IMG/VR virus record: IMGVR_UViG_3300035698_012408
Length of the DNA stretch: 64,000 nucleotides
Direction: 5' to 3' (one strand)
Origin: a virus
A program made the translations under genes and the position numbers. Below are positions 4,790 through 55,943 of this stretch, piece by piece (positions within the stretch are counted from its first letter, which is position 1; each line of letters begins with the position of its first letter). The notes beneath the pieces are model-generated. The model saw only the letters and a program-made list of their open reading frames with translations. It had not been told where the DNA came from and did not search any database.

Positions 4790-6034
4790 TTAGAACGCTC
4801 CGAACGATTCGGAGGTTTCGCTGCTCTCACTGACCGAGCTGCTCACCGAGGGTGGAGCACCGGGGTCTGGCGGCTGCACGGTTAAAGCTACGGCGTCAGG
4901 GCCGTACTCACCGGCTTTCTCGAATACGACAACGTATTCGCCTGGATCTAGCATTACTGCGTAAGCCCAGTGGCCGTTGGTCGTTGTGATCGACTCAGCG
5001 ACCGCGTTGGCAGGAAGCCGGGCACCCGCATCCCAATCTTCTTTCGTGAAGACTCGAATGGTGGCCCCAGGAACCCCACAACAATCTATCTGATATGTCA
5101 AATTCTCGTCTATCGGGTAGTCATGGTCAACCGGAACACAGCCATTTCCGACAGTTGGCTCGTAATTTGGATCGTCGTCTGCCGGGTCGTAGGCGTCCGG
5201 GCTCACGGGTATTCGGTAGATTATATCGTTGAACGGCGCCAAGGCTAGCTCCAGCTCGTTGACCAGCGGGACACCTCGCCAGCTTGCCAGCGGCTTGATC
5301 GAATGGATCACATACCGCTGGTCGGTGTCGCCGTCCACCCAGAAGTCCTCCTTGGCATGATCCGGGGACGCAATGACCCGCGCGATGAATCGATCGAGTC
5401 GCGAGCTGTGCTTGGTCGGATCGGCCCCACCACGCAGCTCAGTGCATTTCTCGCCGTCGATGTCCATCGCGAACGGGACAGGCGGGTGGTATCCGACCTT
5501 GAAGGCCGTCCCCCAGGAGGAGCGATTGCGGGAATCCACAACCTCGTCCGTGAGCGGGTCGGTGGCATTCGTGTCCTTCACGCCATAACGCATGCGGCGG
5601 ACAAGGTAGCCATCCATGCTCACGAGACCATGCCGTAATGTCTCTTTCCGCACGATCTCTCGGGCGATGACCCAGTCTCGTTGATTCAAGATGCCCCATA
5701 TTGGAGCCCCGGCAGACACGTAGACGCCCAGCGACGTCGTGAGCTTCAGCCGATAATGCGACAAAAGACGCTTACCAGCGGGTTCTCGCGTGGTATCGTC
5801 TTCCAGATAGGATGGATTGATGGCCGAATCGCCAATATCAACCCAGTCCAGGGCGGTATTGGTGCCTACGTAACTAGCTTGCAGCTGGAAAACATAGGGC
5901 GACGGATCAGTGAAACGACTATCCATCTCCCACCAAACACGGGAGATGCCGTAGAATAGGTGATTCACGTAGACACGCTGAAACGGATAGCTCTCAGTCG
6001 ACGGCATCGTCATCGTCTCCGTGGGTCGCGTCAT
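4790..6034 (-). CDS. hypothetical structural protein with a C-terminal Ig/carboxypeptidase-regulatory-like beta-sandwich and a Ser/Glu-rich tail
   Basis: 414 aa. The C-terminus GATIRVFTKEDW...GEYVVVFEKAGEYG resembles CarboxypepD_reg-type domains, and the protein ends SVSSSVSESSETSESFGAF. Alternative starts at 6013 and 6007. Confidence 0.5.
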   Translation of the reverse strand: MTRPTETMTMPSTESYPFQRVYVNHLFYGISRVWWEMDSRFTDPSPYVFQLQASYVGTNTALDWVDIGDSAINPSYLEDDTTREPAGKRLLSHYRLKLTTSLGVYVSAGAPIWGILNQRDWVIAREIVRKETLRHGLVSMDGYLVRRMRYGVKDTNATDPLTDEVVDSRNRSSWGTAFKVGYHPPVPFAMDIDGEKCTELRGGADPTKHSSRLDRFIARVIASPDHAKEDFWVDGDTDQRYVIHSIKPLASWRGVPLVNELELALAPFNDIIYRIPVSPDAYDPADDDPNYEPTVGNGCVPVDHDYPIDENLTYQIDCCGVPGATIRVFTKEDWDAGARLPANAVAESITTTNGHWAYAVMLDPGEYVVVFEKAGEYGPDAVALTVQPPDPGAPPSVSSSVSESSETSESFGAF

Positions 6035-6170
6035 CTTCTGCTATGACCCGTTCCGCTTCCGGGCCAAAAAGTAACTTGCTGTCCTGCATCATCTTACTGA
6101 TTTCGGCCTGCACTGGCTTGATGGCTGGCCGCCGAGGCGTCGTGAAGTAAAGATCAACGATTTGAGTCAT
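5994..6170 (-). CDS. small acidic hypothetical protein
   Basis: ATG at 6170 is preceded by an AGGAGCAG SD. The track ORF starts at 6203. Ends with an acidic tail, DDATHGDDDDAVD. Confidence 0.35.
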   Translation of the reverse strand: MTQIVDLYFTTPRRPAIKPVQAEISKMMQDSKLLFGPEAERVIAEDDATHGDDDDAVD

Positions 6171-7200
6171 CCGATTGCTGCTCCTGCGGGTCCCATGATT
6201 CAAGACAACAGTGTAGCTGCCACCTAGTTATCATTCTACCCCAATTGAATTGCTCTAGCAAGCGTCTAACCGTCGCTCTAACCTTCCGACCCATCTGCAC
6301 TTCAGGTGAGTACCGCTCTCGAAGGCCCCGCAGCATCTCGCACGTCTCCACGTGTATTCGTGGGTCATCGCCGGCGATACCCATCGGCACCGAACCGATG
6401 TTGTTCGATGCTTCTATGTCTGCCCGTGGGAGGTTAGCGAGAGCTTGAGTGAGCTCACGGCTACGCTCCTCGGCGTCGATCTCCCGGACTGGTCGGTTGG
6501 TCTCAGTCGCTCGGTCACGATCCGGGTCGGCGACCAGCTCGCGATCGAGCTGTCCACTGTTCATCACGCGGTCCAGCTCGTCGTTCGAGATCTGCATCGG
6601 GGGCATGATGCGACGGTAAAATCCCTCTTCCCGCATCCGTGAGTAAGTAAATTCGTTTACCGCGTCGATCGCTGCCCGGTTGTCGCTGGGAGTGTTCAGT
6701 TGGTCGAACAGATGCTCATTGAGCGTCCGAGTGGTCAACCGCTCCTGTTCCTGCCTGCACGTGTGTGGAGCGGTGATGAACCGCATCCAATCTCGAACTG
6801 ACAGTCGCATCCGCTGACGCTGCGTCGGGCCGGTCCATCCGTTTCTAAGTACCGCGCGTTGCTCTTCCTCCGGCGGGTCTTCTGCGCCCCACGCCCGGAT
6901 CTCTTCTAGCAGTCTTTCCGGCAGCAGTATAGGCTCCGGCACCTGGAACGTCGGCAAGTCGTGGAGTGCTCGCTGCAAGGCCTCTCGGTTGATCCCGCCA
7001 GCGAACACGTCCCCATTGCGGTTCGGCACTTCGCCGTCCGCTGCAATCGCCAGGAGAAACCGTCGATCCTCTGCCAAGATTGTGTCGGTGATGAACTCAG
7101 GATGTCTGGCTGCCAGCGTGGCACGGTAGCTCACAAACGGGATACTAATATCCCGAGCGACTTGCTCCACGCTGCCCGTAATCACTACCGATGCCGCCAT
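6154..7200 (-). CDS. hypothetical head-associated protein carrying a copy of the major capsid protein N-terminal motif
   Basis: 348 aa. Residues LNEHLFDQLNTPSDNRAAIDAVNEFTYSRMREEGFYRRIMPPMQISNDELDR match the MCP segment LNETLFEQLQTPGMEKQAIDAVNDFTRTKMREDGFFRRILPPLQISNDELDR. Confidence 0.55.
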   Translation of the reverse strand: MAASVVITGSVEQVARDISIPFVSYRATLAARHPEFITDTILAEDRRFLLAIAADGEVPNRNGDVFAGGINREALQRALHDLPTFQVPEPILLPERLLEEIRAWGAEDPPEEEQRAVLRNGWTGPTQRQRMRLSVRDWMRFITAPHTCRQEQERLTTRTLNEHLFDQLNTPSDNRAAIDAVNEFTYSRMREEGFYRRIMPPMQISNDELDRVMNSGQLDRELVADPDRDRATETNRPVREIDAEERSRELTQALANLPRADIEASNNIGSVPMGIAGDDPRIHVETCEMLRGLRERYSPEVQMGRKVRATVRRLLEQFNWGRMITRWQLHCCLESWDPQEQQSDDSNR

Positions 7201-8209
7201 AACCCTGCTCCAGATTCATGCTGCTTTTCTTCACGCGAATGAACTGCCGCCACTCTTGTAGCCGAATGGCCGCTGCTCTTTCGTAATTGTCTTCCTTCCC
7301 CTGGTCGTCGACCTGCACCCCGCCGGCAGACACCGGAAGGCGGTTCGATCGATACTGCTCTGCGGCCATGCGGAATAGGTACCCGCAGATGGCGTTGAGC
7401 CAGTTCATTCGGAAAGGGAAATTGATCGTGTTGTAAGTTTGGATCGGCGGCGGCGTCTCGTTCCACTCTTGGACAGGTAGTCGAATCGCCAGCACGATCT
7501 CGGAATCCGAGAACTTCAGTGCGTCAAGCAACAAGTTCTCCACCGGAGCACTGTCTCGCAGGAACAGTCGCACTTCCGCAAATGACGGCGTGCCATTGAG
7601 CTGGTCCAGGGAGATCTGCGGCTCCACGTAAATGTAAAATAGGTTCGAGTAATGTCGAACCGGGTTCAGTGCATCCGTTCGATCATAAATGCCGAACTCC
7701 CCAAAGTAAACCCCGGCCCGCTGTAAACAGGTCGCCGGCAGCTCCACTCGCACAATGCCATCAGTCACGCTCTCGACAGTCACCTCGGTGTCTAGCGTCG
7801 TCTTGGTGACCGATAGTTGCTCCCGCATGGAGAACAGCACGTCAAAGTTGTCATTGCAGGTCCCTGGCATCGTGCCTTCCACCCAGGCCGCCGATTCCGA
7901 CGACGCTGAGACCGACTCCGAGGATGACTCGCTGTCAACCGGCGGTTCCGTAAAGCACCCTGCCAACGATAGCGGATTGCCGGACTGATCCAACATCTGC
8001 CATCGAATCACAGCACTTTGGTTGGCCTGCACCGTGACGCTGGCTATCCGGCCACGAATATCCTGGCCCTGGAATGTCGGCATCGTCGGGAAGACTTCAT
8101 TCTGCGTGCAGCACGTCGTAACCGGGTTGGGTGCAACCGGATGCGTCGGATTGGCGGGCGGCGGACAGCTAACTGGGTCGCCGGCCACAGGAGTCGCTTG
8201 AACAGGCAT
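7145..8209 (-). CDS. hypothetical structural protein (head-tail adaptor/neck candidate)
   Basis: 354 aa, placed between the head and tail modules. Internal Ser/Glu patch DSESSSESVSASSESAA. CAGGGAGGG SD upstream. Confidence 0.45.
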   Translation of the reverse strand: MPVQATPVAGDPVSCPPPANPTHPVAPNPVTTCCTQNEVFPTMPTFQGQDIRGRIASVTVQANQSAVIRWQMLDQSGNPLSLAGCFTEPPVDSESSSESVSASSESAAWVEGTMPGTCNDNFDVLFSMREQLSVTKTTLDTEVTVESVTDGIVRVELPATCLQRAGVYFGEFGIYDRTDALNPVRHYSNLFYIYVEPQISLDQLNGTPSFAEVRLFLRDSAPVENLLLDALKFSDSEIVLAIRLPVQEWNETPPPIQTYNTINFPFRMNWLNAICGYLFRMAAEQYRSNRLPVSAGGVQVDDQGKEDNYERAAAIRLQEWRQFIRVKKSSMNLEQGYGGIGSDYGQRGASRSGY

Positions 8210-8275: not shown

Positions 8276-8316
8276 AACGTGCCCTGCGGCCGATTTTAAC
8301 CGACCGTGGGCACGTT
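8276..8316 (-). terminator. inverted repeat downstream of the repeat-tailed paralogue
   Basis: AACGTGCCC...GGGCACGTT forms a perfect 9-bp stem with a 23-nt loop. On the minus strand it is followed by TTTCTATG. Confidence 0.3.
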
Positions 8317-8360: not shown

Positions 8361-8858
8361 CTACGCAGACGACGATGACAAGCTCGCGCTTTCGCTTACG
8401 CTCGCGCTTTCGCTTACGCTCGCACTATCGCTTACGCTCGCACTGTCGCTTACGCTCGCACTGTCGCTTACGCTCGCACTGTCGCTTACGCTCGCACTGT
8501 CGCTTACGCTCGCACTTTCGGACACAGGCACGTACGTCGGATCAACGACACCGAGAACACCCCCGACGATCTCAATCGACTTGGGTAGCTCATCGACCGT
8601 ATCCCAAAGAATGGGGGCCGGTCGGCTGTTGATACGAAGACTGCCCGTTTTCAAGGCCCGCTCCAAAGCGTCGAACTTTCGGCGTCGCCCACCTTGCTGG
8701 TGTAGGATACCGAGCGAAGCAAGCAAGTCACCGGGAACTGCGGCAACCTCGCCAGCGTCCAGTCGCATACCGCGTGGGCCAAGAAAGCCGAAAACGCGGG
8801 CACCGCCAGAAAGATTTTCGACGACGGTGTACAGCTCGTCTTGTGCTGGATTTGCCAT
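8361..8858 (-). CDS. head-module paralogue A with a C-terminal (SASVSD)n tandem-repeat tail (decoration/fibre candidate)
   Basis: 165 aa. The first ~105 aa are about 75% identical by eye to the neighbouring 129-aa ORF. The C-terminus is 8 hexapeptide repeats. Confidence 0.7.
   Translation of the reverse strand: MANPAQDELYTVVENLSGGARVFGFLGPRGMRLDAGEVAAVPGDLLASLGILHQQGGRRRKFDALERALKTGSLRINSRPAPILWDTVDELPKSIEIVGGVLGVVDPTYVPVSESASVSDSASVSDSASVSDSASVSDSASVSDSASVSESASVSESASLSSSSA
8382..8525 (-). repeat. 18-bp in-frame tandem repeat, about 8 copies
   Basis: The unit GCTCGCACTGTCGCTTAC (plus strand) is repeated head to tail with a few substitutions. It encodes SASVSD/SASVSE on the minus strand. Confidence 0.9.
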
Positions 8859-8911
8859 CAGATTATTTCTCCCTCATTATGACATTGCAAACAGGAGCCG
8901 CAGTCTCAGTA

Positions 8912-9301
8912 TTAAATTTCCGCACCCTGTACAAGGGAGCTGCTACTGAGACTGAAGCTATAACTCTTCGGCACGTACGTTGGATCAACAACGCCGAGAG
9001 TACCGCCGACGATCGCAATCGACTTCGGAACCTCGTCAACCGCGTCCCAGAGAACTGGGGCGGGGCGGCTATTGATTTGCAACGAGCCGGCCTTCAGGGA
9101 CCGCTCCAGGGCGTCGAACTTCCGACGGCGCCCACCTTGCTGGCTTTGAGAGCCAAGCGAGGCGAGCAAATCACCGGGGATCGTAACGACCTCGGAGGCA
9201 GCCAAACGCATCCCTCGGGGACCGAGGAAACCGAACACTCGCTCGCCACCAGAGAGATTCTGGACGACTGTGTAGAGTTCGTCTTGGGATGGATTTGCCA
9301 T
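8912..9301 (-). CDS. head-module paralogue B (no long repeat; Ser-rich end SYSFSLSSSSL)
   Basis: 129 aa, starting MANPSQDELYTVVQNLSGGERVFGFLGPRGMRL, versus MANPAQDELYTVVENLSGGARVFGFLGPRGMRL in paralogue A. Both share the upstream sequence GGGAGAAATAA. Confidence 0.7.
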   Translation of the reverse strand: MANPSQDELYTVVQNLSGGERVFGFLGPRGMRLAASEVVTIPGDLLASLGSQSQQGGRRRKFDALERSLKAGSLQINSRPAPVLWDAVDEVPKSIAIVGGTLGVVDPTYVPKSYSFSLSSSSLVQGAEI

Positions 9302-9364: not shown

Positions 9365-9796
9365 CTACGCCGCGGGCTGTTGCTGCTGTTGTGCCGCGTG
9401 GGCATTGACAGCTTGCAGACTCAACACCGCGTGAGCGATAGTCGGGTCGAACGATGCTTGAGCGGCGGCCTGTTTGACCATTTGCGCGCTGGCGTCGAAC
9501 TTGGGCGTATCATAACCACGTGCTTGCAACTGCTGCTGGAGGTGGGCACTTGCACCAGCGAGCAACGGATTGCCGGCGGACGCTGTCTTTTCCACTTCCG
9601 TGTCGTGGGCCGACCGCAACTGGGCCGCCATCGACATCATTTCCATCGCCTCAGTTTCGTTTTGAGGACGAATTCCGTAGTCTTGAGCGAGCTTCTCAAA
9701 GAACACCGGAGCGTAAACCCGCTGATGCACGACGGCATACGCGGTTTCCGGGTCCATAACTTGAGGAGCACCCGCGTTTGGATTGTCTTGCGACAT
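9365..9796 (-). CDS. hypothetical helical protein downstream of the MCP
   Basis: 143-aa ORF, Ala/Gln-rich, with an ACGGAGA SD. No recognisable domain. Confidence 0.5.
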   Translation of the reverse strand: MSQDNPNAGAPQVMDPETAYAVVHQRVYAPVFFEKLAQDYGIRPQNETEAMEMMSMAAQLRSAHDTEVEKTASAGNPLLAGASAHLQQQLQARGYDTPKFDASAQMVKQAAAQASFDPTIAHAVLSLQAVNAHAAQQQQQPAA

Positions 9797-9837
9797 TGGG
9801 GAAATCTCCGTTACTTACGGGTAGTATGCGAATGAAA

Positions 9838-9866
9838 CCGGCCCGGCCCCGAAGGGCCGTAGCCGG
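9838..9866 (-). terminator. intrinsic terminator candidate just after the major capsid gene
   Basis: Minus strand reads CCGGC-TA-CGGCCC-TTCG-GGGCCG-G-GCCGG, an 11-bp GC stem with a UUCG tetraloop, followed by TTTCATTC. Confidence 0.5.
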
Positions 9867-9892
9867 ACAAAAATCTTCACTACCAACAACGC

Positions 9893-10822
9893 TTACGCGA
9901 AGTCGGCTCGGGCGATGCCACCGGCGTGTCCGATACTTCCACCCATCGTCTGATAGGCGAAGAATTCGAGCATGTACGCTTCACGACGAATGTACATGGT
10001 CGTATCTTCTAGCAGATACGACTTACCGATGAACTTGGGATCGGCGAACATGAACATCGAGTCGTCGGGGACCAGATCGCGCTTGATCGTGATGATCCAA
10101 CGCATGTTCATGAAGTTGGCTTCAGCCCAACCGTTCTTGATGACGTCCTGGGAGAAATCTCCGCCCATTTCGTCACGTCCAAACTTCTCGATCTCCTTGA
10201 TCGTCACGTTGTTGATCAGGCACGTATGCGATTCGAGATGACTCGGACCGCGCGGCATGATCTTACGGGCGTCTTGGAGGGTCTCACGGGTGATGCCACC
10301 TTCAATGGTTTCCCACTGAACGACATTGCCGTTGTACGGCACCGGGACGTCCGGGCCGATCATCAAAGCGTTGCACGCAGAGATGAATTTCGAGTCTTCT
10401 TCGGCTAGCATATCTTTGATGCTATTATCCGAAAGGACCTGTCGAATGTCCATGACCCATGTGCGAAGCTCGTCCACGTCCTTGACGAATCGAGGCGTGA
10501 CAATGCGGTCGAACATTACGCGGTAACGAGGACCACGAATGTAGACATTGACAGGCAACGTCGCGAACGGAATCGAGATCGCAGCCGGGGAATCCGGCTC
10601 TTTGTCGACGACTTTGACAGGCTTGTCGGTGTCGACTTGCCGGTCCAACTCGTCGTTGGAAATCTGGAGGGGTGGAAGAATTCGGCGGAAGAAGCCGTCC
10701 TCACGCATCTTGGTTCGCGTGAAGTCGTTGACGGCGTCAATCGCTTGCTTCTCCATCCCGGGAGTTTGCAGTTGCTCAAACAGTGTCTCGTTGAGCAGCT
10801 GGGTATCAGTTTGGGTTGCCAT
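9893..10822 (-). CDS. major capsid protein, HK97-fold type
   Basis: About 309 aa. The C-terminus TTMYIRREAYMLEFFAYQTMGGSIGHAGGIARADFA is typical of HK97-like MCPs, and the position after scaffold/decoration candidates fits. ATG at 10822 has an ACGGAGG SD. The track ORF starts at 10858. Confidence 0.75.
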   Translation of the reverse strand: MATQTDTQLLNETLFEQLQTPGMEKQAIDAVNDFTRTKMREDGFFRRILPPLQISNDELDRQVDTDKPVKVVDKEPDSPAAISIPFATLPVNVYIRGPRYRVMFDRIVTPRFVKDVDELRTWVMDIRQVLSDNSIKDMLAEEDSKFISACNALMIGPDVPVPYNGNVVQWETIEGGITRETLQDARKIMPRGPSHLESHTCLINNVTIKEIEKFGRDEMGGDFSQDVIKNGWAEANFMNMRWIITIKRDLVPDDSMFMFADPKFIGKSYLLEDTTMYIRREAYMLEFFAYQTMGGSIGHAGGIARADFA

Positions 10823-10907
10823 CGTAGCAAACCTCCGTGTTTTCGGGATGTCAGCCAATCATGGCCGATTGATTACAATGTACGCTCTGCTTTCGGAAGA
10901 CCACCTG

Positions 10908-12103: not shown

Positions 12104-13657
12104 TTAGCCCTGATAATTCATCAGTTCAAGCAAGTGTGCCTTCATTTTTTCGCGAAGTAGCCGCTCAGGCGAACCATCCGCGGCTTCCTTCTGACGATAA
12201 CGACCGGACATCTGGAATGCCTTAGCCGCACTTGCGAGCTTCATACCTTCGCTCATGGGAGGCATGGCACCTTCGGGAGGCATTCCGCCGCCGGGAGGCA
12301 TTCCGCCACCTTCGGGGGGCATTCCACCTTCGGGAGGCATGGCACCTTCGGGAGGCATTCCGCCACCGGGAGGCATTCCGCCACCTTCGGGAGGCAGCCC
12401 CATGCCCTCTTCGGGCGGAGGGCCAGCTTGCGCGAGGGCTTCGATCGGAATACCAAGCTCTTCAAGAGCTGCAATCAGCTCCATGATAGCTTCTTCTTCG
12501 GACGGACCACCGAGGCCTCCGCCACCCATCTCGCCGCCACCCATCTCGCCGCCGCCACCCATCATCGGGTCGCCGCCGCCACCTCCCATGATACCGCCGG
12601 GATCGCCGCCGCCACCAAGGAGTTCGCCGAGACTTCCGCCACCTTCACCGCCACCCTCAGCGGGCATTGGTCCACCACCGCCATCGGCGCCTTCGGCATC
12701 CGACGCACCCGAACCGCTGTCGCCAGGATTGTTATTATCCTCGGCGTCAGCCATATCGGCCGCTTGCTTCTGGTGGAAGGCAGTGAGATAGCTGCCGAAC
12801 AGATCGGCATCGACGTTGGCGTCAGCGATAGTGTCATTGAGACACTCAGCAACACTGGATTGTGCCGCCGTCTTTTCGACGCCTAGATGCGTGGCCAGCT
12901 CGTAGCCAGCCTGAAGATCGGGATTGCCAGCGGCCATCCCAGCAGTGTTACCGGCCTTCACGGCGTCGGCAGCTTGCTTGATCATGATGTCGAGCTCACT
13001 CGCTTGCTTCTCCCCAGCCGGGGCTTGGCCCGACATCTGGGTCGAAGGCGCTGCGGGTGTATTCTCGCCAGCGGCCGACGGATTCAGGTTAGCGCTGGTG
13101 GCCTGAGCCTCGGCCAGTGCTTCCTTCGTCAGTTGACCACCGAGACCGTTGGTGAGGTCAGCAAGAATGCCGTTGGCCAGACCGTCACTGAGCGTTTTCA
13201 GCTCACTGACACTGGCGTTGGCATATTTGTGACCATCGAGAGAACTGTTGTCGGTGGCCGCGGGATGTGAAGTCCCGGGGTCATCCTTACCGGCTTTGTA
13301 GTCGTTCTCCACCGAAGGGTCTTCCCCGGTAGCAGACTGGGACGTGCCGATATTCAATTGAGCGTCATCCTGACGACCGTCCGTGTTATCGGGGGTCTGG
13401 TCGACGCCGGGTGTACCTTGATCGGCTTTCACGTCAGAAGCATTTTCGCCGGAGCGAGCCCCTTCAGTGGCCGATTGGCCCCGGTTATCGACACTCGTGG
13501 TCGGATGCGTGGACGAACCTTGGTAACCTCCCGGATCAGCAGGAGTAGGAGACTCGCCCTGCTTGACGCGGGCGGCCGCCTGCTTCTCCGTTTGGATTTC
13601 GTCCGCAAGCGAATGGAGAGCCGAAAATAAACGGCCCTGCTGAGCGTTAGCGGTCAT
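12104..13657 (-). CDS. low-complexity Met/Pro/Gly-repeat protein (scaffold/internal-protein candidate)
   Basis: 517 aa with GGMPPEGAMPPEGGMPPEGGGMPPGGGMPPEG repeats and a GDPMMGGGGEMGGGEMGGGG stretch. AAGGAG SD upstream. Confidence 0.6.
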   Translation of the reverse strand: MTANAQQGRLFSALHSLADEIQTEKQAAARVKQGESPTPADPGGYQGSSTHPTTSVDNRGQSATEGARSGENASDVKADQGTPGVDQTPDNTDGRQDDAQLNIGTSQSATGEDPSVENDYKAGKDDPGTSHPAATDNSSLDGHKYANASVSELKTLSDGLANGILADLTNGLGGQLTKEALAEAQATSANLNPSAAGENTPAAPSTQMSGQAPAGEKQASELDIMIKQAADAVKAGNTAGMAAGNPDLQAGYELATHLGVEKTAAQSSVAECLNDTIADANVDADLFGSYLTAFHQKQAADMADAEDNNNPGDSGSGASDAEGADGGGGPMPAEGGGEGGGSLGELLGGGGDPGGIMGGGGGDPMMGGGGEMGGGEMGGGGLGGPSEEEAIMELIAALEELGIPIEALAQAGPPPEEGMGLPPEGGGMPPGGGMPPEGAMPPEGGMPPEGGGMPPGGGMPPEGAMPPMSEGMKLASAAKAFQMSGRYRQKEAADGSPERLLREKMKAHLLELMNYQG

Positions 13658-18865: not shown

Positions 18866-19123
18866 CTATTGCTCCGGTCCATCTATATCAATTGATCGCT
18901 GCCGTGACGGGAACACCGGATAGTCACCCTCGGGGACACCCGCACCGTCAACATCCACCTGTGACGCAAAACACGTAAGCGTCATTTTCGGTGACATGTC
19001 TCCTGCGTTCATAGTGATCTGGACTGCCGTAACCATCTCGACGACTTGTCCAGTCTCTATGTCGAAGACAGCAACATCTACGTCGCCATCCTTCAGCTGC
19101 TTAAAGCGAAAACCCAACTTCAT
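18866..19123 (-). CDS. small hypothetical protein
   Basis: 85-aa ORF with a TAATG junction to the upstream gene. Confidence 0.45.
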   Translation of the reverse strand: MKLGFRFKQLKDGDVDVAVFDIETGQVVEMVTAVQITMNAGDMSPKMTLTCFASQVDVDGAGVPEGDYPVFPSRQRSIDIDGPEQ

Positions 19124-19557
19124 TACGAGTTCAATTCTGCCATTTCGATGGTCATGCCGATCGAATAGGCTTTATCCCCCGACCCTGCTGGCGTAATGGC
19201 TAACCACAGACGACGCACCGGGTTAGTGCTCGTGCCATCGCCGTTGCGGAATATGGTGTCCATTTCATAGTCGGCGAACTTGCCGGCGACTACGCTCTTG
19301 ACACCGAAGAGCGAATGGAGCCCGGGCTCTTGGCCCGCCACTGCGCTCGACTCACTGGAAATGCTGTCATCATCGGCCATAGCATAGGCCGCTTTTCGTG
19401 CCGAAAACAGTTGGAACGTGGCATCAACGACCCCGCCCACCTGCTCCAGCACAAGACGTCGAATGGTGCCGCGGTGCGGCACCTTCAATTCGACAACAGA
19501 CGTTTTACCGGCCTCGACGTCAAACTCCAACGGGCCGTAGTTCCAAGGAACTCCCAT
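19123..19557 (-). CDS. hypothetical beta-rich protein with the Ser patch DDDSISSESS
   Basis: 144-aa ORF directly downstream of the portal candidate. Confidence 0.5.
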   Translation of the reverse strand: MGVPWNYGPLEFDVEAGKTSVVELKVPHRGTIRRLVLEQVGGVVDATFQLFSARKAAYAMADDDSISSESSAVAGQEPGLHSLFGVKSVVAGKFADYEMDTIFRNGDGTSTNPVRRLWLAITPAGSGDKAYSIGMTIEMAELNS

Positions 19558-22240: not shown

Positions 22241-24142
22241 CTACTGCGTTGATTTACTGGTTGAATTATCTTGCCAACCCTGTGTCAAACCTTCTCGTCC
22301 GAAGCTCTCCCCACGTGCCAACGCTGGCACGTAACTACTGCCCGCTTCGTCTGAAACTGCCCCTCGTCGAGCACCTTCAAGCAGGCTATTCTTCTGGTAG
22401 CTTCCGAGCATCCGTGTCATCCAGTCCGGGTCGTGGGCGGCGTTGGCCATGCCCCTGATCATCTCTGGCTGGAATGGCGGCTGCTCATTATGCACCGTAA
22501 CACTCTTGACCCCGTAATTGGTCAAATCTGCTAGCATTGAAGGGCGAATCTGTGTACCGATGGAGTGATGCAGGATCGGCTGCTCCAGGTATTTACCCAC
22601 TGCCTGACCCGGCGGCAGCACCTGAAAACCATTCCGTGACTTCCAGTTGGATTCGACCAGCTGGTACGGCACCACATCATCCTGCACCCAGTCTCCCACC
22701 TCCTCGGTCAGCCGCACATGGTTGATTAACCCACGGGCCAACAGCTCAATGTTTCGTCGATCTCCGCTTGTCCCTGAGTCCTGCAAAACTTGTCGAAACG
22801 CGGACATGAGGTATCGACGACCCTCGCCAATCCCCTTGTGCTTCACGATTTCGCTCGGATTTGGTGTACCCTCGGAGAGCACGTCGCCGGCCTCCACGGT
22901 ATCACCGCGTTTCACCTTCAGCGGGAAACCACGAGCCACATAATGCTGCTCACTGCCGACATCTACGTAAGATCCACCCTGTGGGGCTTCGCGAATATCC
23001 GTGACTTTGCCATCATGTTGCGAGTGGGCTGCCCCACCTTGGAACGTCTTCGGGACCTGCACGAGCTGATTGATGTACTTGAACCCGGAAATTGCCCCGG
23101 CGCCAGCGGCTCCAGCGATCCCGCCGGTGTGCTTTGAGCTGATTTGGGCCTGCGTGATCGGTTCGGCAAGTGCCTGGGCGGCTGCGATACCCACATAGTC
23201 GCCGATCGGGGACAAACCGCCTCGTTCCCGGTGCCCGACGTCTCTTGCGTAGACACCGCCGTCTTTCGGGCCACCCACGATCGGGCTGCGTACCAGGATA
23301 TTCTCAACCCCTTCATCCTTCAACTCCCGCAGGATTTTCGGACTCAGTACGGTATTTCTGGCATACGGGCCGACAGGATGAGCCAATAAGGCCCCTTCAT
23401 TATCCATGTCGTCGGTGGATACTGCCAGCCCCCGTGGCTGCTCAATGTCATATTCGTCGTCGCTGTCGACACGAGACACGAGCAATCGATGGGCTGCCTG
23501 CACAAGCTGCTTTGCGAAGAAACCTGCGTCCTGCGTGGCCGATTTGACGTCAATTACGCCTTTTCTGGCCCCAAACGCTCCCGCGAAGTATTCGTGGGGT
23601 TTCAGCCCCATCGAATAGCTGCGGGTCACAGGGATCGGCAACACCCGCCCTCTGTGATCCGTGTATAACAAATCGGCTCCACGAAGGCTATTAAGATTAA
23701 ATTTGTTCCCTCGGGAGCCTGATATGGCTTGCTGGGCAAGCGGGTTTTGTTCTGCTTGGCTCTCTTCAAACACGTCATCTACGAGTCGCGTCTGATGTTC
23801 GCCAGTCACTTCTATGATTCGTTGCTCTTTTTGTTCCGTCGACAGCTTAGGGTCTGCATAAATAGTACGCAATTCCTTCCCAAGTTGCAACCGCATCTTA
23901 CGAGCTGCAAGACTTTGCCGCAAGGCCGATAGCCCAAATGAGTAGCCGCCTGTGGTAAAAGCAGCGTCTCGGCCGACGTCGGAAAGCTGCTTAGCGATGA
24001 CCCGATATTTGTCAGGATGATTCTTTGCGACCTCGGTCAGCAGGGCCTTTATACCCTTCTTATCAAGCACACGCTCATCATCCCGCAGTTCTGCGGGAAG
24101 CGAGCGATTGATCATGATTTGGCCGACAGTGGTCTTACGCAT
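22241..24142 (-). CDS. rpoC: DNA-directed RNA polymerase beta' subunit, C-terminal half
   Basis: 633 aa. Starts TTVGQIMINRSLP...FTTGGYSFGLSAL, like bacterial beta' after about residue 620. Has a trigger-loop-like SSKHTGGIAGAAG and RRYLMSAFRQVLQDSGTSGDRRNIELLARGLINHV (compare ...DKHIEVIVRQML). Confidence 0.85.
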   Translation of the reverse strand: MRKTTVGQIMINRSLPAELRDDERVLDKKGIKALLTEVAKNHPDKYRVIAKQLSDVGRDAAFTTGGYSFGLSALRQSLAARKMRLQLGKELRTIYADPKLSTEQKEQRIIEVTGEHQTRLVDDVFEESQAEQNPLAQQAISGSRGNKFNLNSLRGADLLYTDHRGRVLPIPVTRSYSMGLKPHEYFAGAFGARKGVIDVKSATQDAGFFAKQLVQAAHRLLVSRVDSDDEYDIEQPRGLAVSTDDMDNEGALLAHPVGPYARNTVLSPKILRELKDEGVENILVRSPIVGGPKDGGVYARDVGHRERGGLSPIGDYVGIAAAQALAEPITQAQISSKHTGGIAGAAGAGAISGFKYINQLVQVPKTFQGGAAHSQHDGKVTDIREAPQGGSYVDVGSEQHYVARGFPLKVKRGDTVEAGDVLSEGTPNPSEIVKHKGIGEGRRYLMSAFRQVLQDSGTSGDRRNIELLARGLINHVRLTEEVGDWVQDDVVPYQLVESNWKSRNGFQVLPPGQAVGKYLEQPILHHSIGTQIRPSMLADLTNYGVKSVTVHNEQPPFQPEMIRGMANAAHDPDWMTRMLGSYQKNSLLEGARRGAVSDEAGSSYVPALARGESFGREGLTQGWQDNSTSKSTQ

Positions 24143-25382: not shown

Positions 25383-28300
25383 TTATTTGTCATCTTCGAC
25401 GATTTCGACCCTGCGGCCGACACCGATCTTACCTTGTTTATACGCTCTGATTGCGTCAGCCGTCGTGGCAAACACCGCAGCCGGCTTGTCTTCATCCACC
25501 CGTGCCGACGCTTCGTAGAGCCCGCCGACGTATTCCTGAGATGGCATATAGTGTACCCCGAAGTCCGCGGCAGACAATAGGTTTCTGGACGGGAGCATCT
25601 TTTCGAGGGCTTCATGTGCCTCTGCTTCCGTGGCCGGCACGTGATATTGCATCGCATCACCGTCAAAGTCAGCGTTGAAACCACTGACCACCAACGGACT
25701 TACCTTCAGCACGTCACCTTTCACCAGCTTCGGCCTAGCTGCCATCATACCATATCTGTGCAGCGTTGGCGCCCGATTGATTACGACGACGCCGTCTTGC
25801 ATCTCTTTGAGGAGCGCTTCCCGAGCGACCGGCGATCTCTCTTCAGCGGCACGGATGGCCTCACGACGGGACCATCCTTTGCGAACGAGCCGTCTGGTGA
25901 CGATGGGTTTGTAGATGCTCCAGGCTTGCTCTTCAGGAAGCCCAACTTGATCCATATCGAGGTCAGGGTCCGGCGCAATAACCGACCGCCCGACCATGTC
26001 GACGGCGCTGCCGAGCAATCGTCGCTGCACCATTCCGAGTTTTGGGGAAGTACCAAAGACATGTCGAAGAATTCCCTTAACCTTGCGTTCTTGGTTCTTC
26101 GGATGCGTCGGGTCGCCAAGGCCAGTCACCGCTCGAAACGCTTGATACAGCGCCAGCCGTTCATCGCCTATGTCCTCGTCATTGAGTAGCCCAGCCGCTT
26201 CCTTTAGGTTTTTGTTTGCATCCCATACTTCCTTGTATAGATAATTTGGATCAGCCACCAACGGCAGCTTTCTCTTACCCATCGTCGACACCGGGCGGAA
26301 GGCCGGCGGCAGCACGGGCACCTTCGACAGCAGCCAATCACGTGGGTGCATGCCAAGACGTTTCGCATCTTTCAGGTAGCCAAGCCGGCGAACCGCAGCA
26401 TCACGGGATGTGCGTTTGCCACTCTTGATCTCTTCTCGGGCTCTGGCCAGCTCGCCGTCGAGGTTCATGTTATCCAGGGCGGAGCCGACAGCCTTCGGAC
26501 CCGTGGCCCCGTTCAGCCGCTCTTTCCCGCTGAGCACGTCCTCAAACTTCTGTTTCGTTAGCCCCAACACTCGTCGAATCGGCTCTTCCATTACCGGGTT
26601 GGGTAACGGCTCATGCAGCCGAATGAAGCTCCACCGATTACCACCGCCTTCCGGCGTCATGTGGCCACCGGTGAGTGCTTGATCAAACAACCCGCCGCGA
26701 ACCGGCTCCATCGTCTTCCAGTCAACGGTTCCCACGTTCTGGAGCTCCCGGTTACCCGCGAGCTTGTCAATGTCGTCGTTGCGAAGTGCCATTATATGCG
26801 TCTGCGACCCATCGCGCACGACGTTGATACCGGCTGCCTTCAAATGCGACACATACTTCTGATACATGTGTGGCACCTTCGGCGTCGGCGGATTGTAGCC
26901 CGACATGTACTGAGCCCAATATTCAGGGCTGGCCTGTCCACGAATCATGTTACCGCTGCGTAGGAACTCTGTCGCTCCGTGGGACAGCAACGCTCCGACT
27001 TCCAGCATGCCGATTCGCTTGGCCCCTTCCGGGCCACCCTTGGCTGGTGTCTGATCCGCCGTGTAAGCTCCGAGTCCGCGACCCTGTCCTTTGGATTCGG
27101 CGGTATGGTGCAGCTTCATGAACCAGCGATTGCCGGTAAACACATCAGGTATCTTGCGACCAGTCTCCGAGTCCATGATCGTCTCGGTGTCCGCTATGCC
27201 GGCCTTCTTCAGCTCGGCCAACGCGTACTCCACGAGATCGTCTTCATCCTGGAAGTCAGGAACCTTGAACGCTTCGCCGCGGGCTGCCGCGATCTTCCCG
27301 AGAGCTGCCTCCACGATCTGGGCGGGATTGGTTCGACTGATCACACCGAGTGGGTTGAGCAGCACCTCGTACGGTTGCCCATCCTGATCCGACGGCATGT
27401 CGGCATCCGGGACGATGCGAGAGATGATACCCTTGTCGCCATACCGCCCGGACAGCTTGTCGCCGACCTCCATCGGGGCAATGGACTTCACCACCACAGC
27501 TGATCCGCCATCGTCATCCACGACGTCCGTAACCATGCCTGGAGTGTGATGATCCCACGTGACAGTCTGATTAAGGTAACCGGGTGAACGGCCACGCAGC
27601 ATTGATTTACGATTTCGTTCTCGTTCCCTCGCCACGAGGATCAGCGGATCACCGCTCTTTACCTCTGTGCCGGGGCGAATGAATCCGTTATCGTCGAAGT
27701 TCTCCAGCATGGCTTTGTCATAGGCGGCGGGGAATACCGAAATGAATGCGTTCTTTCCGCGTTGATCCTTGCCGTCCCACTCGTACCCATGCTGGTACAT
27801 GTGCTCCGAGCTCATCTTTTTGGCGAATGACTCTGAGATGACGTTGGCGTCCTCGAAGTTGAGCCCTCCGAAGGGGACGTACGCGACGCGGGCGTTCCGG
27901 CCGAGCGCTGACACGCCTTGCATGTCCGTGAAGTTCGACCGAGCGAGCAACTGCCCTTCTTCGACAGTTTCACCAACCTGGACCGTTGGCGTGTTGTGGA
28001 TGAAGGTTTTTCGATTGTAGGGGAAGTTGTCGTAGAGAGGGATTTCTTCCGTGCCGCCGCCCTCTTTCGTAACCGTGATACTATCTCGATCGACAGCGGC
28101 AACACGACCACGACCAGGACTGTCCCACCTAACAGCACCCATGTGCTTAGAGTATTCATCTTCAAAACTCCGACCGGGTTGTCCGGGGACGCCACTCTGC
28201 ACCAGCGGGGCTTCTGCACCTACGACGGGCAATGCCTGCGTCAACATGCGAGCGGCCATCACCGCGCGTTGTCCCTTGACCATTGATTTCAACGGGATCA

Positions 28301-29828
28301 TATTACCGAGCGGGGAGAACGTGCTCTCCATGTCGGGAATCTCATAATCCACCGTGTTGCGTGGCACCATGCGGACCTTGCCACTCTTCAACACCGGCAC
28401 CAACGCCTTGGGGTCGCGTTTCCCGCCACCTGGAAATGCTATCACGGCATCTGCCAAGTCCTGAGGACTTCGATATACGGTCTCACCAGTCTTAGTATCC
28501 ACCACTGGGGTGTAGACACGTCCGTCGTCACCCTTTCGCGCGGCACTTGCCATCCTCGCATCGACGCCTACCTTCCCGCTCTCTGGCGTGCGTAGAAAAT
28601 CCACAAAGCCAAACTGCGTTGGCTGCACTGCCCGAGCTTCGTCTGGTACTGCGTCCAAACTTGGGATACCACCTTCACCCATCCGCGTTACGCGGGAGTG
28701 CTGGTCGAAAATGTCTGCCGGATTGATCTCTTCCAGGGGGATACCCAGGCCGCTGCTCATGAGTGCGGCTTGAATCACGTCGTTGTAGGCTCCAGTCGGC
28801 ATCCGCTCAAGATCACCACGCCCCGAGGCCTTCCACAACAGCCTCTGCGTGACGCTACGCGCCTTGCCGAGCCGTTCCGCGAACAAGTCCTCCGGTCCCA
28901 TCATGGACTGGTAGGCCATCGAATCACGATCGTCAGGCTCTGCTTCGCCGCGAGACACGGCCAACAGCTTGCGAGTGACCGCCAGCAGCGTATCCGGCCC
29001 GACGTTCTCGAACGGTTCGCCGAGTGTCCGCTTCGTCACCTCGGGGTCCAGCGACATGGCCATGAAGGCCTCGGCAACGCGAGCCTTCTGCTCTATGGAG
29101 CTGCCTTCGCCGTCCTTGAACAGCTTGGAGTGTAGCTTGCGGATGACGGCGGGGTCATCCTTCTGGGCGTTCGTGTAAGTGAGATCATTGCCCCAGGCTT
29201 CCCGCAGCTGCGTGTCCGTCACCCCTTGGGCCCGCAAGAGCGGGAGGAGCGGCATCCTTGCCTGCCCCATTTGAATGCGGAATATCCCGCTCTGTGGGTC
29301 AAGGAATATTCGGTGACTGAAGCCCTTCTTCACGTTGACGTGGCTTTCCAGTTCACCATTGTCTTTCATGCGAGTGAACACACCCGGACGCAGTCGCATC
29401 TGGTGTGCCATCGTGTATTCGTTCCCGTTGACAACAAAAGTCCCGCGATCAGTCATCCACGGGATCTTGGCAACCGTGGCCTTCTTCCGCCCCAGTTCTG
29501 CTCCTTCCGCATCAGACAGCACCCACGTGCCACGCAGCGGCCGCGATAGACTTTTTCGCGATAGAATAGCCTTCTTTTGTTCGGCGATGGAGAAGCTCTC
29601 GGGGCCGTGGTACGCCACGTCCGTCAACGCGAGAGTATGCCGGGGGTTGGACACGGGTTCGATAGCTTGGGCGGCCGCCAACGCGTTGGCAAACAGACGT
29701 TTGCGAGTACCCGGTGTGTCACCGAACTTGCGATACGCGGGCGTAGCTTCCTCTTTGTCAGCCACGGGAGGAGCGAGGCTGGCATCAGGACCAAGTACCG
29801 ACTGAGAAATTAAACTGTCGTTAGCCAT
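25383..29828 (-). CDS. rpoB-rpoC fusion: DNA-directed RNA polymerase beta subunit fused to the N-terminal half of beta'
   Basis: Beta motifs: GTFVVNGNEYTMAHQMRLRPGVF, GRYGDKGIISRIVPDADMP...LLNPLGVISRTN, FMKLHHTAESKGQGRG, GMLEVGALLSHGA. Then, in the same frame, beta' motifs: VPVLPPAFRPV, INRAPTLHRYGMMAARP, NADFDGDAMQYHVP. The start at 29828 (MANDSL) overlaps the upstream stop as ATGGCTAA. Confidence 0.9.
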   Translation of the reverse strand: MANDSLISQSVLGPDASLAPPVADKEEATPAYRKFGDTPGTRKRLFANALAAAQAIEPVSNPRHTLALTDVAYHGPESFSIAEQKKAILSRKSLSRPLRGTWVLSDAEGAELGRKKATVAKIPWMTDRGTFVVNGNEYTMAHQMRLRPGVFTRMKDNGELESHVNVKKGFSHRIFLDPQSGIFRIQMGQARMPLLPLLRAQGVTDTQLREAWGNDLTYTNAQKDDPAVIRKLHSKLFKDGEGSSIEQKARVAEAFMAMSLDPEVTKRTLGEPFENVGPDTLLAVTRKLLAVSRGEAEPDDRDSMAYQSMMGPEDLFAERLGKARSVTQRLLWKASGRGDLERMPTGAYNDVIQAALMSSGLGIPLEEINPADIFDQHSRVTRMGEGGIPSLDAVPDEARAVQPTQFGFVDFLRTPESGKVGVDARMASAARKGDDGRVYTPVVDTKTGETVYRSPQDLADAVIAFPGGGKRDPKALVPVLKSGKVRMVPRNTVDYEIPDMESTFSPLGNMIPLKSMVKGQRAVMAARMLTQALPVVGAEAPLVQSGVPGQPGRSFEDEYSKHMGAVRWDSPGRGRVAAVDRDSITVTKEGGGTEEIPLYDNFPYNRKTFIHNTPTVQVGETVEEGQLLARSNFTDMQGVSALGRNARVAYVPFGGLNFEDANVISESFAKKMSSEHMYQHGYEWDGKDQRGKNAFISVFPAAYDKAMLENFDDNGFIRPGTEVKSGDPLILVARERERNRKSMLRGRSPGYLNQTVTWDHHTPGMVTDVVDDDGGSAVVVKSIAPMEVGDKLSGRYGDKGIISRIVPDADMPSDQDGQPYEVLLNPLGVISRTNPAQIVEAALGKIAAARGEAFKVPDFQDEDDLVEYALAELKKAGIADTETIMDSETGRKIPDVFTGNRWFMKLHHTAESKGQGRGLGAYTADQTPAKGGPEGAKRIGMLEVGALLSHGATEFLRSGNMIRGQASPEYWAQYMSGYNPPTPKVPHMYQKYVSHLKAAGINVVRDGSQTHIMALRNDDIDKLAGNRELQNVGTVDWKTMEPVRGGLFDQALTGGHMTPEGGGNRWSFIRLHEPLPNPVMEEPIRRVLGLTKQKFEDVLSGKERLNGATGPKAVGSALDNMNLDGELARAREEIKSGKRTSRDAAVRRLGYLKDAKRLGMHPRDWLLSKVPVLPPAFRPVSTMGKRKLPLVADPNYLYKEVWDANKNLKEAAGLLNDEDIGDERLALYQAFRAVTGLGDPTHPKNQERKVKGILRHVFGTSPKLGMVQRRLLGSAVDMVGRSVIAPDPDLDMDQVGLPEEQAWSIYKPIVTRRLVRKGWSRREAIRAAEERSPVAREALLKEMQDGVVVINRAPTLHRYGMMAARPKLVKGDVLKVSPLVVSGFNADFDGDAMQYHVPATEAEAHEALEKMLPSRNLLSAADFGVHYMPSQEYVGGLYEASARVDEDKPAAVFATTADAIRAYKQGKIGVGRRVEIVEDDK

Positions 29829-45833: not shown

Positions 45834-46768
45834 AGATACTTCTCCAATAACTGCATCCACTTTTTGTAGAATAATGGCAGCCCGAAACGCTCTCGGGCTA
45901 CCGCAACGTCGGGAGGCGGGCCTGCCAATGCCTTCTTCACATGTGCTACTATTGCCTCTGCCGTCGGAGTAGTCCTGGCATGCTGCACTTCGATTCGCGT
46001 AACCATATCAGCGTACTCTTCGCAATGTGCGCGAGCTGATACCACCACACGTTTACCGAGACACAGAGCTTCTACCACCGAGAATGGGAAGGCTTCGTGC
46101 TTGGATGGCACGCACATGACGTCAGCGGCTCGATAGACATCGCCTATCGTGGTCGTGTAACCAATCAACTGCGTGTAGTCGTTCTTCAGTCGACTATCCC
46201 CAGCAATGTTACCGCCCGCAAAGATAGCATGGCGATTGAATAGCTTGGCCGCCTTGGCTATCTGTGCTGCGTTCTTCAACTGAGAGTTACGACCGACGAA
46301 CCCCATCAGAAACTCACGACCGAACTTTTTACGCAGGTCCACACCAACCTTGTCCAGACGGTCAATGTCCACGCCGTTGTTGATGACCACGGGCATTCGC
46401 CCAGTGTATCGACGGGTGTTATGAGCCACCGGGATAGACACGGCGACGATTTCATCCGCTTTCTTCGTAGCCTTCACCCAACCACTCAGCCACGTCCGCC
46501 GGCTATGCCGCACGGCGATGACAGGGCCATCATGCTCCCGTGCTACCTTGCAGCCACTGGAGTCGATCACGATGCGGGTATCCTTGATGACACCGATCTC
46601 GAACGGGATGCCCGCTGCTGTCAACGTGGCTATCGCCGTTGGAAACAGCTTCGGTCCCTGGACACGGACGGTCACGCCCTGTGACTGAAGATAAGAGGCG
46701 AGCGAGATTACCCAGGTAAGCCCACCGCCATTATTTAATCCGCGGAACGCGAACGTGATGTCGGTCAT
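45830..46768 (-). CDS. GT4-family (GT-B) glycosyltransferase, paralogue 2
   Basis: 312 aa. EAFPFSVVEALCLGKRVVVS. Roughly 55-60% identical by eye to paralogue 1. ATGA overlap with the methyltransferase gene. Confidence 0.75.
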   Translation of the reverse strand: MTDITFAFRGLNNGGGLTWVISLASYLQSQGVTVRVQGPKLFPTAIATLTAAGIPFEIGVIKDTRIVIDSSGCKVAREHDGPVIAVRHSRRTWLSGWVKATKKADEIVAVSIPVAHNTRRYTGRMPVVINNGVDIDRLDKVGVDLRKKFGREFLMGFVGRNSQLKNAAQIAKAAKLFNRHAIFAGGNIAGDSRLKNDYTQLIGYTTTIGDVYRAADVMCVPSKHEAFPFSVVEALCLGKRVVVSARAHCEEYADMVTRIEVQHARTTPTAEAIVAHVKKALAGPPPDVAVARERFGLPLFYKKWMQLLEKYL

Positions 46769-47319
46769 GCCTTCTCCAGATAGAAGATCGTTTCCTTCCG
46801 ATACGTATCCTCGTGGTGGATATGCCCTTTGAGCATCTCACGCAGATCCGCTTCGCATAACCGAATGTTTGGAATGATGTGGCCTTCCCAGTTATCGTCC
46901 CTGACGTTCGTGTCCGTCTCGGCCATTCGCAAGAACAACACCAACGTCATCCGTTTCGTGTAGGACTTGAGAGCGTTTTCGAGAATCTTCCGCCAGTTGA
47001 CGTTATGTTCCAACACGTGACGCATGTTGAGGCAGGGCACGCGGGAGGTGTAGACTTCGAGATCCTTCAGGTAATCACAGAATCCCGCAGTGCCATCAAC
47101 GCCGATATATTCCGGCCGATCGGCTGGGGGCACCATGTTGTGCAGCACCTTCTCGAAGTCGCGGCAACCGCAGCCCCAGTCTTCAATCATGCCGTTGCCT
47201 TCCAGCCACGCGACAGATCGCCGATAGGAAGTTTTGCGTCCGTAGTCCCGCCGATGCGCTCCGTCTTTATAACACGGCGACCACTTACCGGCTCCACTTT
47301 CTTCTCTTGACTTCCCCAC
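46765..47319 (-). CDS. class I SAM-dependent methyltransferase
   Basis: 184 aa. Motif I-like MIEDWGCGCRDF, followed by YIGVDG and MRHVLEH. GTG start with an AAGGAGAG SD. Confidence 0.65.
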   Translation of the reverse strand: MGKSREESGAGKWSPCYKDGAHRRDYGRKTSYRRSVAWLEGNGMIEDWGCGCRDFEKVLHNMVPPADRPEYIGVDGTAGFCDYLKDLEVYTSRVPCLNMRHVLEHNVNWRKILENALKSYTKRMTLVLFLRMAETDTNVRDDNWEGHIIPNIRLCEADLREMLKGHIHHEDTYRKETIFYLEKA

Positions 47320-48760: not shown

Positions 48761-48765
48761 ACCTG

Positions 48766-54809: not shown

Positions 54810-54917
54810 CGCACACGCCCTCCTTGGGTGCAAAAGAGGTTGCTGCTGGGAACCAGCTTGGTCCCACGGTGTTAATCATACCCCAACTCTCACCGCAATG
54901 CGAGAGGAGTCAAGAAT

Positions 54918-55902: not shown

Positions 55903-55943
55903 CAAAATAACCTCCAGCGTCGCAGTGACGCCTGCCCCTTATT

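Follow-up and report, generated by a model that had tools for sequence, protein, structure and literature searches.

We analysed a 64,000-nucleotide stretch of viral DNA (IMG/VR record IMGVR_UViG_3300035698_012408; the whole stretch is called here the window), with attention to two adjacent genes for paralogous small proteins with serine-rich C-terminal tails, named paralogue A (129 amino acids, aa) and paralogue B (165 aa). All genes of the window are on the minus strand and, in the order of transcription, the region presents the capsid gene, a gene for a 143-aa protein, paralogue A, paralogue B, a hairpin, genes for proteins of 354, 348, 414 and 256 aa, and the tail sheath gene (Table 1). 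The 321-aa open reading frame (ORF) of the capsid gene matched the protein annotated as major capsid protein in Salmonella phage Arash (tblastn E 4e-23, 95% coverage) and, weakly, a phage capsid structure (PDB 6wkk) and phrog_2522. The original prediction had placed the two paralogues in a head module, and their capsid-proximal position, with the major capsid protein as neighbour, bears this out.

Table 1 Features of the window discussed in the text, with coordinates, strand and supporting evidence. Residue ranges (res) are followed by their coordinates; L021-L023 are related contigs
Feature	Coordinates	Strand	Evidence
Paralogue A, 129 aa: ~110-aa core and 20-aa Ser-rich tail	8912..9301 (tail 8915-8974)	minus	ORF, GGGAGAAATAA ribosome-binding site, 66 homologues
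Paralogue B, 165 aa: same core and 54-aa tail of eight SASVS[D/E]-type units	8361..8858	minus	83% identical in protein to paralogue A
18-bp in-frame tandem repeat, 7.7 copies	8382..8520 (encoded tail 8364-8525)		Tandem Repeats Finder (TRF) score 236, 96% matches; also found as a repeat family by a separate repeat search
GC-rich hairpin of terminator type, then GUUUCUAU, immediately behind paralogue B	8276..8316	minus	Free energy (dG) -27.2 kcal/mol, z -5.4
143-aa Ala/Gln-rich protein, conserved upstream partner of the small-protein family	9365..9796	minus	Same place in relatives
Major capsid protein, 321-aa ORF (309 aa called in relatives)	9893..10858	minus	tblastn match to Arash capsid protein
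354-aa virion-module protein with Ser-rich insertion loop	7145..8209 (res 90-108, 7886-7942)	minus	Patch scan
414-aa virion-module protein with C-terminal Ser-rich spacer before FGAF motif	4790..6034 (res 393-411, 4802-4858)	minus	Patch scan
Tail sheath homologue, 981 aa	867..3812	minus	phrog_279 tail sheath, E 2.3e-7
Two Ser patches in the 981-aa sheath homologue	res 287-299 at 2916-2954; res 390-403 at 2604-2645	minus	Patch scan
144-aa protein with weak patch DDDSISSESS	19123..19557 (res 62-71, 19345-19374)	minus	Read from sequence; below the 6-in-12 threshold
Four tandem sulfotransferase paralogues, 242, 252, 249 and 259 aa	41944..44931	minus	Pfam Sulfotransfer_3 above cut-off, 4/4
Two tandem GT4 glycosyltransferase paralogues, 319 and 312 aa	44901..46768	minus	Pfam Glycos_transf_1, Glyco_trans_1_4, E 1e-12 to 4e-10
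184-aa conserved cassette gene	46765..47319	minus	Syntenic in L021-L023

Both paralogue genes were preceded by a GGGAGAAATAA ribosome-binding site, and their first 111 residues aligned without gaps at 83% identity (E 2e-70). The cores had been described as about 75% identical, which is correct for the DNA (74.8%) but not for the proteins. In each of the 27 related loci in which we detected it, the family gene occurred once; only this phage had two copies. The two paralogues, 83% identical to each other, were each 82-86% identical to the single-copy orthologues; the synonymous divergence between them (dS) was 1.45 and the ratio of nonsynonymous to synonymous divergence (dN/dS) 0.08. As the distance between A and B equals that to the orthologues, these values indicate that the tandem duplication is old and that both copies are under purifying selection.

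The two proteins differ in their tails. The 129-aa protein ends in ...KSYSFSLSSSSLVQGAEI; the string SYSFSLSSSSL, previously given as its end, was present but is followed by six more residues. The tail of paralogue B (residues 112-165) reads VSE-(SASVSD)x5-(SASVSE)x2-SASLSS-SSA, that is, the eight hexapeptides from an 18-bp tandem repeat that had been anticipated, five of them SASVSD, two SASVSE and one SASLSS. An AlphaFold2 (AF2) model of paralogue A had an alpha/beta core with a predicted local distance difference test score (pLDDT) of ~90 at residues 11-80 and values below 50 from residue 111 onward, and the tails of the paralogues are accordingly predicted to be disordered. The N-termini of both proteins (MANP...DELYTVV) presented no hydrophobic leader, and no LPXTG was found at their ends.

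Four units of the 18-bp array were identical, so that the array appears to be young, in contrast to the old gene duplication. Other assemblies carried an identical 129-aa gene, and in other assemblies paralogue B was present as either 165 or 147 aa. Two contigs from the Joint Genome Institute (JGI) had 8 repeat units and 100% identity to the window, and two contigs from the European Nucleotide Archive (ENA) had 5 units and a slightly different haplotype of single-nucleotide polymorphisms (SNPs), with flanks 99.8-99.96% identical to the window in one (L012; 6 SNPs per 5.5 kb) and 99.3-99.6% in the other (L017). Two Logan contigs, also 100% identical, broke inside the array. At the level of assemblies, then, near-identical genomes differ by 8 versus 5 units of an in-frame repeat of variable copy number. 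Comparison of copy number among related genomes had been suggested beforehand, with the repeat named as a likely variable locus, and on assemblies this expectation was confirmed; the linkage of the 5-unit allele to its own SNP haplotype argues for real length variation.

A word-index search with the small proteins recovered 66 homologues of ~120 aa (E down to 1e-59), with no names and no Pfam domains. An exhaustive profile search extended the family to at least 504 representative clusters at 50% identity (E <= 1e-3). No Pfam or PHROG match to the core was found when both paralogues and 150 diverse family members were scanned, and sequence-profile searches of the core against PDB gave no match. 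A scan of representative bacterial and archaeal genomes did not find the family core either, and thus provides no host clue.

We defined the family tail as the part after a conserved ...LGxxDP[STC][YW] motif and compared it with the core in 155 members. The tails had a median length of 11 aa and 26% Ser, against 6.5% in the cores; Lys plus Arg made up 1.1% of the tails and 9.4% of the cores, and Asp plus Glu 17% of the tails. Many tails ended in [FY]A[AP]V. Other family members (numbered with the prefix P) presented quite different appendages. C-terminal beta-sandwich domains replaced the tail in some; in one such fusion modelled with AF2 this domain was all-beta (pLDDT 80-90), and Foldseek related it to S-layer, CopC and titin Ig-like folds with probability 1.0 and E values of only ~1e-3. 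Collagen-like G-A-T repeats occurred in P0094 and P0117, poly-Ser linkers joined modules in P0086, N-terminal modules were found in P0153 and P0199, and P0172 and P0181 had an insertion of ~360-470 aa before the last strand. Appendages at the C-terminus, at the N-terminus and at one insertion site point to these sites being solvent-exposed; we infer that the core is an anchor, with both termini and one loop facing the solvent.

The neighbourhood of the family gene was well conserved. In every relative examined the capsid gene was followed by a gene for a 122-160-aa Ala/Gln-rich protein and then by the family gene. An intrinsic-terminator hairpin, GC-rich, perfectly paired and with a U-run, lay right after the family gene in the window and in all nine relatives folded (loci L001, L004-L007, L010, L113, L116 and L121), with differing stem sequences. 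A second hairpin followed the capsid gene in the window (within 9794-9895), in L001 and in L004, but not in L007. The family protein diverged much faster than the capsid protein of the same loci (47-84% versus 79-96% identity).

These data bear on whether the small protein could be a neck or head-completion (connector) component of ~12 copies, whose appendages would form a collar or whiskers. Its size of ~110 aa and its place between the capsid and sheath genes, the usual site of adaptor and head-closure genes, would suit that role, and one family member matched the PHROG family 'head closure Hc3'. We rejected this match as an identification of the core, for it lies at residues 84-183 of P0181, in the inserted module. 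The core was also unlike any solved connector or head-closure structure searched, the conserved terminator sets the gene apart from the neck and tail genes that follow and leaves it grouped with that of the capsid, and divergence so much faster than that of the capsid protein is unusual for a ring fitting the portal. Gene position, terminator and fast divergence would rather suit an accessory protein that is abundant and head-associated than a subunit of a neck ring, and we give the connector role only a small chance of being right.

The tails of the two paralogues were not the only Ser-rich segments. When we required 6 or more Ser within 12 residues, a patch was present in 5 of the 56 window proteins scanned (the two paralogues and the 354-, 414- and 981-aa proteins) and absent from the other 51; 500 shuffles gave a mean of 0.94 proteins with a patch and a maximum of 3. 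All five lie inside the capsid-to-sheath block, which holds 13% of the residues (p ~4e-5). The patches consisted of ~50% Ser plus V, A, E and D, and contained almost no Thr, Pro, Lys or Arg. Similar patches had been noticed before in the 354-, 414- and 144-aa proteins. Those of the 354- and 414-aa proteins were readily recovered; the one in the 144-aa protein, which has no Pfam or PHROG match, does exist but is weak and falls short of the threshold. The two patches of the sheath homologue were absent from that earlier list.

Relatives showed how these segments evolve. In the 354-aa family the Ser-rich loop occupied the same alignment position in most relatives, with lengths from 0 aa (clade L007-L010) to ~50 aa (L004). 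In many relatives the loop was bracketed by CxC...CxC, which suggests an extruded loop clamped by disulfides or by a metal. In the 414-aa family the spacer separates the globular part from a conserved terminal aromatic motif, (D/E)FG(A/D/G)F or FWDI; most lineages had a Ser-rich spacer, and clade L007-L010 a non-Ser one. The sheath patch near residue 390 recurred in L115 and L116. Clade L007-L010 had none of the patches, and in clade L121-L124 the small protein had no tail and the other patches were kept. Given their fixed position despite variable sequence and length, the patches are a lineage-wide, position-conserved feature whose sequence is free to change, and the claim that they recur in proteins of the virion gene block stands, both by shuffling and by comparison with relatives.

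Such segments might also be low-complexity DNA without functional effect, which arises by slippage and persists where the proteins tolerate it. The young array with its four identical units would agree with this, and so would the large length variation, down to zero in clade L007-L010. The same composition, however, recurred at the same sites of several proteins in lineages whose capsid proteins are 66-96% identical to that of the window, Lys and Arg were strongly excluded, and the remaining 51 window proteins were free of patches. We therefore consider neutrality very unlikely; both it and the connector role are less likely than the bristle proposed next and than the glycan acceptors discussed further below.

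The explanation we favour, as probable but far from certain, is that the tails form an exposed, disordered, anionic, Ser-rich bristle on an accessory protein of the capsid module, lengthened by the repeat and belonging to a wider set of Ser-rich spacers. The two genes, old tandem duplicates, would encode a small accessory protein of the capsid-gene module, whose ~110-aa alpha/beta core would anchor it to the particle, most likely at the capsid surface, with a C-terminal appendage that is exposed and evolves freely. In the lineage of the window this appendage is short, acidic and Ser-rich, with almost no basic residues, and is predicted to be disordered. Replication slippage of the 18-bp in-frame unit would have lengthened the tail of paralogue B to eight hexapeptides, and to five in a sister strain. 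Like segments occupy fixed and presumably exposed sites in at least three more proteins of the virion-gene block, as a loop in the 354-aa protein, as the spacer that precedes the C-terminal motif in the 414-aa protein, and in the sheath. Most likely all of them serve as spacers or bristles that are flexible, hydrophilic and negatively charged, in which length varies and not sequence.

Several results weigh against this explanation. No homologue was found in 50,697 cultured phage records by tblastn with two different family members as queries. The fold of the core was unmatched by any solved or predicted structure searched (no significant Foldseek match in PDB or BFVD; best E 0.2-0.3, template modelling (TM) score <0.35), so the proposed capsid anchor draws on where the gene lies and on the domain make-up of the family. 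Collapse of the four identical units by the assembler could, in principle, account for the 5-unit allele. A terminator-like hairpin stands also behind the capsid gene in some relatives, and expression of the small protein at the level of the capsid protein cannot therefore be assumed.

Two kinds of known proteins provide partial parallels for the bristle. T4 Hoc is a capsid decoration protein with display domains. With decoration proteins of this type the small protein would share its size and accessory nature, a gene next to that of the capsid, its faster divergence than the capsid protein, and the Ig-like domains of some family members. Searches of Pfam, PHROG, PDB and Foldseek revealed no sequence or fold similarity of the core to known decoration families (Hoc, gpD, Soc, Dec and similar); unlike decoration proteins with display domains, the pair in the window carries a disordered tail and not a folded domain, and its binding to the outside of the capsid is putative, with indirect backing from the position of the gene, the terminator and the exposed appendages of other members. 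In the polyserine linkers of bacterial carbohydrate-active enzymes, Ser runs serve as flexible spacers between modules, a use that P0086 and, ahead of its terminal motif, the 414-aa family show directly; in the small proteins of the window, by contrast, the Ser-rich segment forms the very end of the chain and precedes no folded part. The family had no description before; the notions of a decoration-type protein whose appendages vary, of linkers rich in Ser and of in-frame repeats that change in number are known.

The original prediction went further and proposed that glycosyltransferases and sulfotransferases encoded by the phage modify the Ser-rich tails. Genes for such enzymes are indeed present, as Pfam recognised two members of glycosyltransferase family 4 (GT4) and four sulfotransferases in one cassette (Table 1). 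The GT4 proteins were 59% identical to each other. The sulfotransferases were 33-56% identical mutually and kept the PRxG[TS]H and RWNL[LF]RR motifs for binding of 3'-phosphoadenosine 5'-phosphosulfate (PAPS); likeness to solved enzymes was confined to the P-loop. The cassette runs from a 2H phosphoesterase gene (47330-48865) through the 184-aa gene, the two GT4 genes and the four sulfotransferase genes to a gene for a 630-aa protein. The 184-aa gene had no Pfam match; a DWGCG motif seen by eye, with PDB methyltransferase matches at E 0.2 only, hints faintly at a methyltransferase. Three related contigs (L021-L023), which do not include the structural module, had a syntenic cassette with one GT4 and one or two sulfotransferase genes, against two and four here. 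In these contigs the flanking 2H-phosphoesterase gene encoded 759-766 aa with added InPase and SET domains, compared with 511 aa in the window. Elsewhere in the window, two adjacent ORFs (55189-56951, minus strand) had sub-threshold similarity to GT25 (E 6e-3) and Glyco_trans_1_2 (E 5e-4) and may represent a second glycosyltransferase locus.

By analogy with known systems, the Ser-rich tails and loops could be acceptors of O-glycans, added by the cytoplasmic GT4 enzymes and then sulfated and perhaps methylated, to give an anionic virion coat in which expansion of the repeat multiplies the sites. The joint presence of two GT4 and four intact sulfotransferase genes in one cassette, its synteny in three related contigs, and the expansion of both enzymes and candidate acceptor in this phage are in favour of the idea. 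So is the conservation of position and composition without that of sequence, as in mucin-like acceptor regions. Sulfation of Tyr at the conserved aromatic residue of the family tails was also considered and dropped, as many relatives have Phe at that residue.

Glycans have been placed at the C-termini of capsid and tail-tube subunits of mycobacteriophages (Che8, Rita and others) by Freeman 2023, as that work is summarised in PMC12619734 and PMC11256854. The parallel, as far as these summaries describe that system, consists of phage-encoded glycosyltransferases and of C-terminal extensions of virion proteins as possible O-glycan acceptors. As compared with the same summaries, the candidate acceptors here would be the accessory protein, the 354- and 414-aa proteins and the sheath, and not the capsid protein; the segments are Ser-only, four sulfotransferases come in addition in the cassette, and the phage is a jumbo myovirus (see below). 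The major capsid protein of the window ends in ...GGIARADFA, with no extension and no Ser patch, and no gene for a tail tube was recognised in the window.

GtfA, one of the enzymes that modify the serine-rich repeat glycoproteins of Gram-positive bacteria, belongs to GT4. These adhesins are O-GlcNAcylated by GtfA/GtfB in the cytoplasm by a GT-B enzyme, and like the tails described here they alternate Ser with A, V, E or D (S-x-S-x) and are encoded by tandem DNA repeats (PMC6973325). Their repeats differ in comprising hundreds to thousands of residues (PMC6973325), and the adhesins carry a signal peptide, leave the cell by accessory Sec export and are held by an LPXTG anchor, in contrast to the two leaderless small proteins of the window. 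GtfA/B carry a DUF1975 domain, which Pfam did not find in the GT4 proteins of 312 and 319 aa; only generic GT4 families matched these. Their similarity was generic GT4 similarity, and the nearest solved relatives were 'predicted glycosyltransferase' entries and PglA, which acts on a lipid-linked sugar acceptor; both this and the lack of DUF1975 count against protein glycosylation.

Searches for co-occurrence of cassette and patches also spoke weakly against the proposal. Only five homologues of the GT4 proteins were found among 5.8 billion proteins, and none belonged to the complete relative closest to this phage (230 kb, with a capsid protein of 96% identity), in which Ser patches are present. 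Searches of IMG/VR with single proteins, alignments and back-translated motifs, which need exact motif matches, found no such GT4, and exact-match-dependent searches found neither the cassette-flanking 630-aa protein nor the flanking protease. The IMG/VR contigs without a detected cassette include eight with the small-protein family, of which four have Ser patches, and the collection contains a 184-kb relative with patches; as the searches depend on exact motif matches, these negatives weigh moderately and not decisively. The 184-aa gene recovered 80 unrelated IMG/VR contigs (L030-L109; 29-41% identity, giant-virus bins included), and none of these loci carries GT4 or sulfotransferase genes. 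A word-index search with a sulfotransferase returned the query itself only; local tblastn detected homologues of 34-52% identity in L021-L023, so the word-index search is insensitive at that distance. Overall, the co-occurrence searches somewhat weaken the glycan proposal and argue weakly against a strict link between cassette and patches.

Further points against glycan acceptors come from the segments themselves and from the position of the cassette. Clade L121-L124 keeps the other patches with a tail-less small protein, the patches are almost free of Thr and Pro, and the cassette is 33 kb away, adjoining a 2H-phosphoesterase gene. Ser stretches plainly serve as spacers ahead of another module or a terminal motif in several members of the small-protein family, as they do in the 414-aa family, and a linker role explains them without glycans. 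We regard glycan acceptors as unlikely, though deserving of consideration. More unlikely still is the most elaborate form of the proposal, a particle whose capsid accessory, 354-aa, 414-aa and sheath proteins stand in a mucin-like anionic coat of sulfated O-glycans carried on bristles, with the number of acceptors tuned by 18-bp slippage and the enzymes by tandem duplication, from one GT4 and one or two sulfotransferases to two and four.

The window comes from an uncultured jumbo myovirus. Viral contigs with the small-protein family reach 160-230 kb, and the phage of the window is ~215 kb. A moraphage lineage was considered and rejected, because moraphages are without RNA polymerase genes (PMC12619734) and the window encodes beta/beta' homologues. 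A 1495-aa ORF (25383-29870, minus strand) fuses RNA polymerase beta domains with the N-terminal beta' domains and a 633-aa ORF (22241-24142, minus strand) holds the C-terminal beta' domain, an arrangement of split and fused subunits that is unusual among phage multisubunit RNA polymerases. The 348-aa ORF (6154-7200, minus strand) is a rearranged paralogue of the major capsid protein with permuted segment order: its residues 157-258 matched capsid residues 19-102 (47% identity, E 4e-23) and its residues 18-122 matched capsid residues 94-244 (24% identity, E 5e-6). L001 had a 355-aa counterpart, and L003-L010 showed none. A 517-aa ORF (12104-13657, minus strand), which lies upstream of the capsid gene, presented Gly/Met/Pro-rich tandem repeats of nested periods (18, 57 and 75 bp) at 12257-12396 and 12515-12563, and may encode a scaffold-like protein. 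A 1556-aa ORF (50163-54833, minus strand) without Pfam match had a 30-bp tandem repeat (4.9 copies) and shorter repeats at 51026-51289.

If the glycan idea is wrong, the locus would be nothing out of the ordinary, a structural module with a duplicated gene and low-complexity linkers. If glycosylation and sulfation were true, virion glycosylation would extend well beyond the actinobacteriophages and would include sulfation, for which we found no report on phage particles in the literature searched. The small proteins define a large phage family of at least 504 clusters that no library describes and that behaves as an anchor for exposed, freely evolving appendages, which would be useful for annotating the structural modules of jumbo phages. 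The rule followed in this lineage, acidic, Ser-rich and Lys/Arg-free segments at fixed exposed sites whose length changes fast, would offer a compact and testable case of how a phage tunes the surface of its particle.

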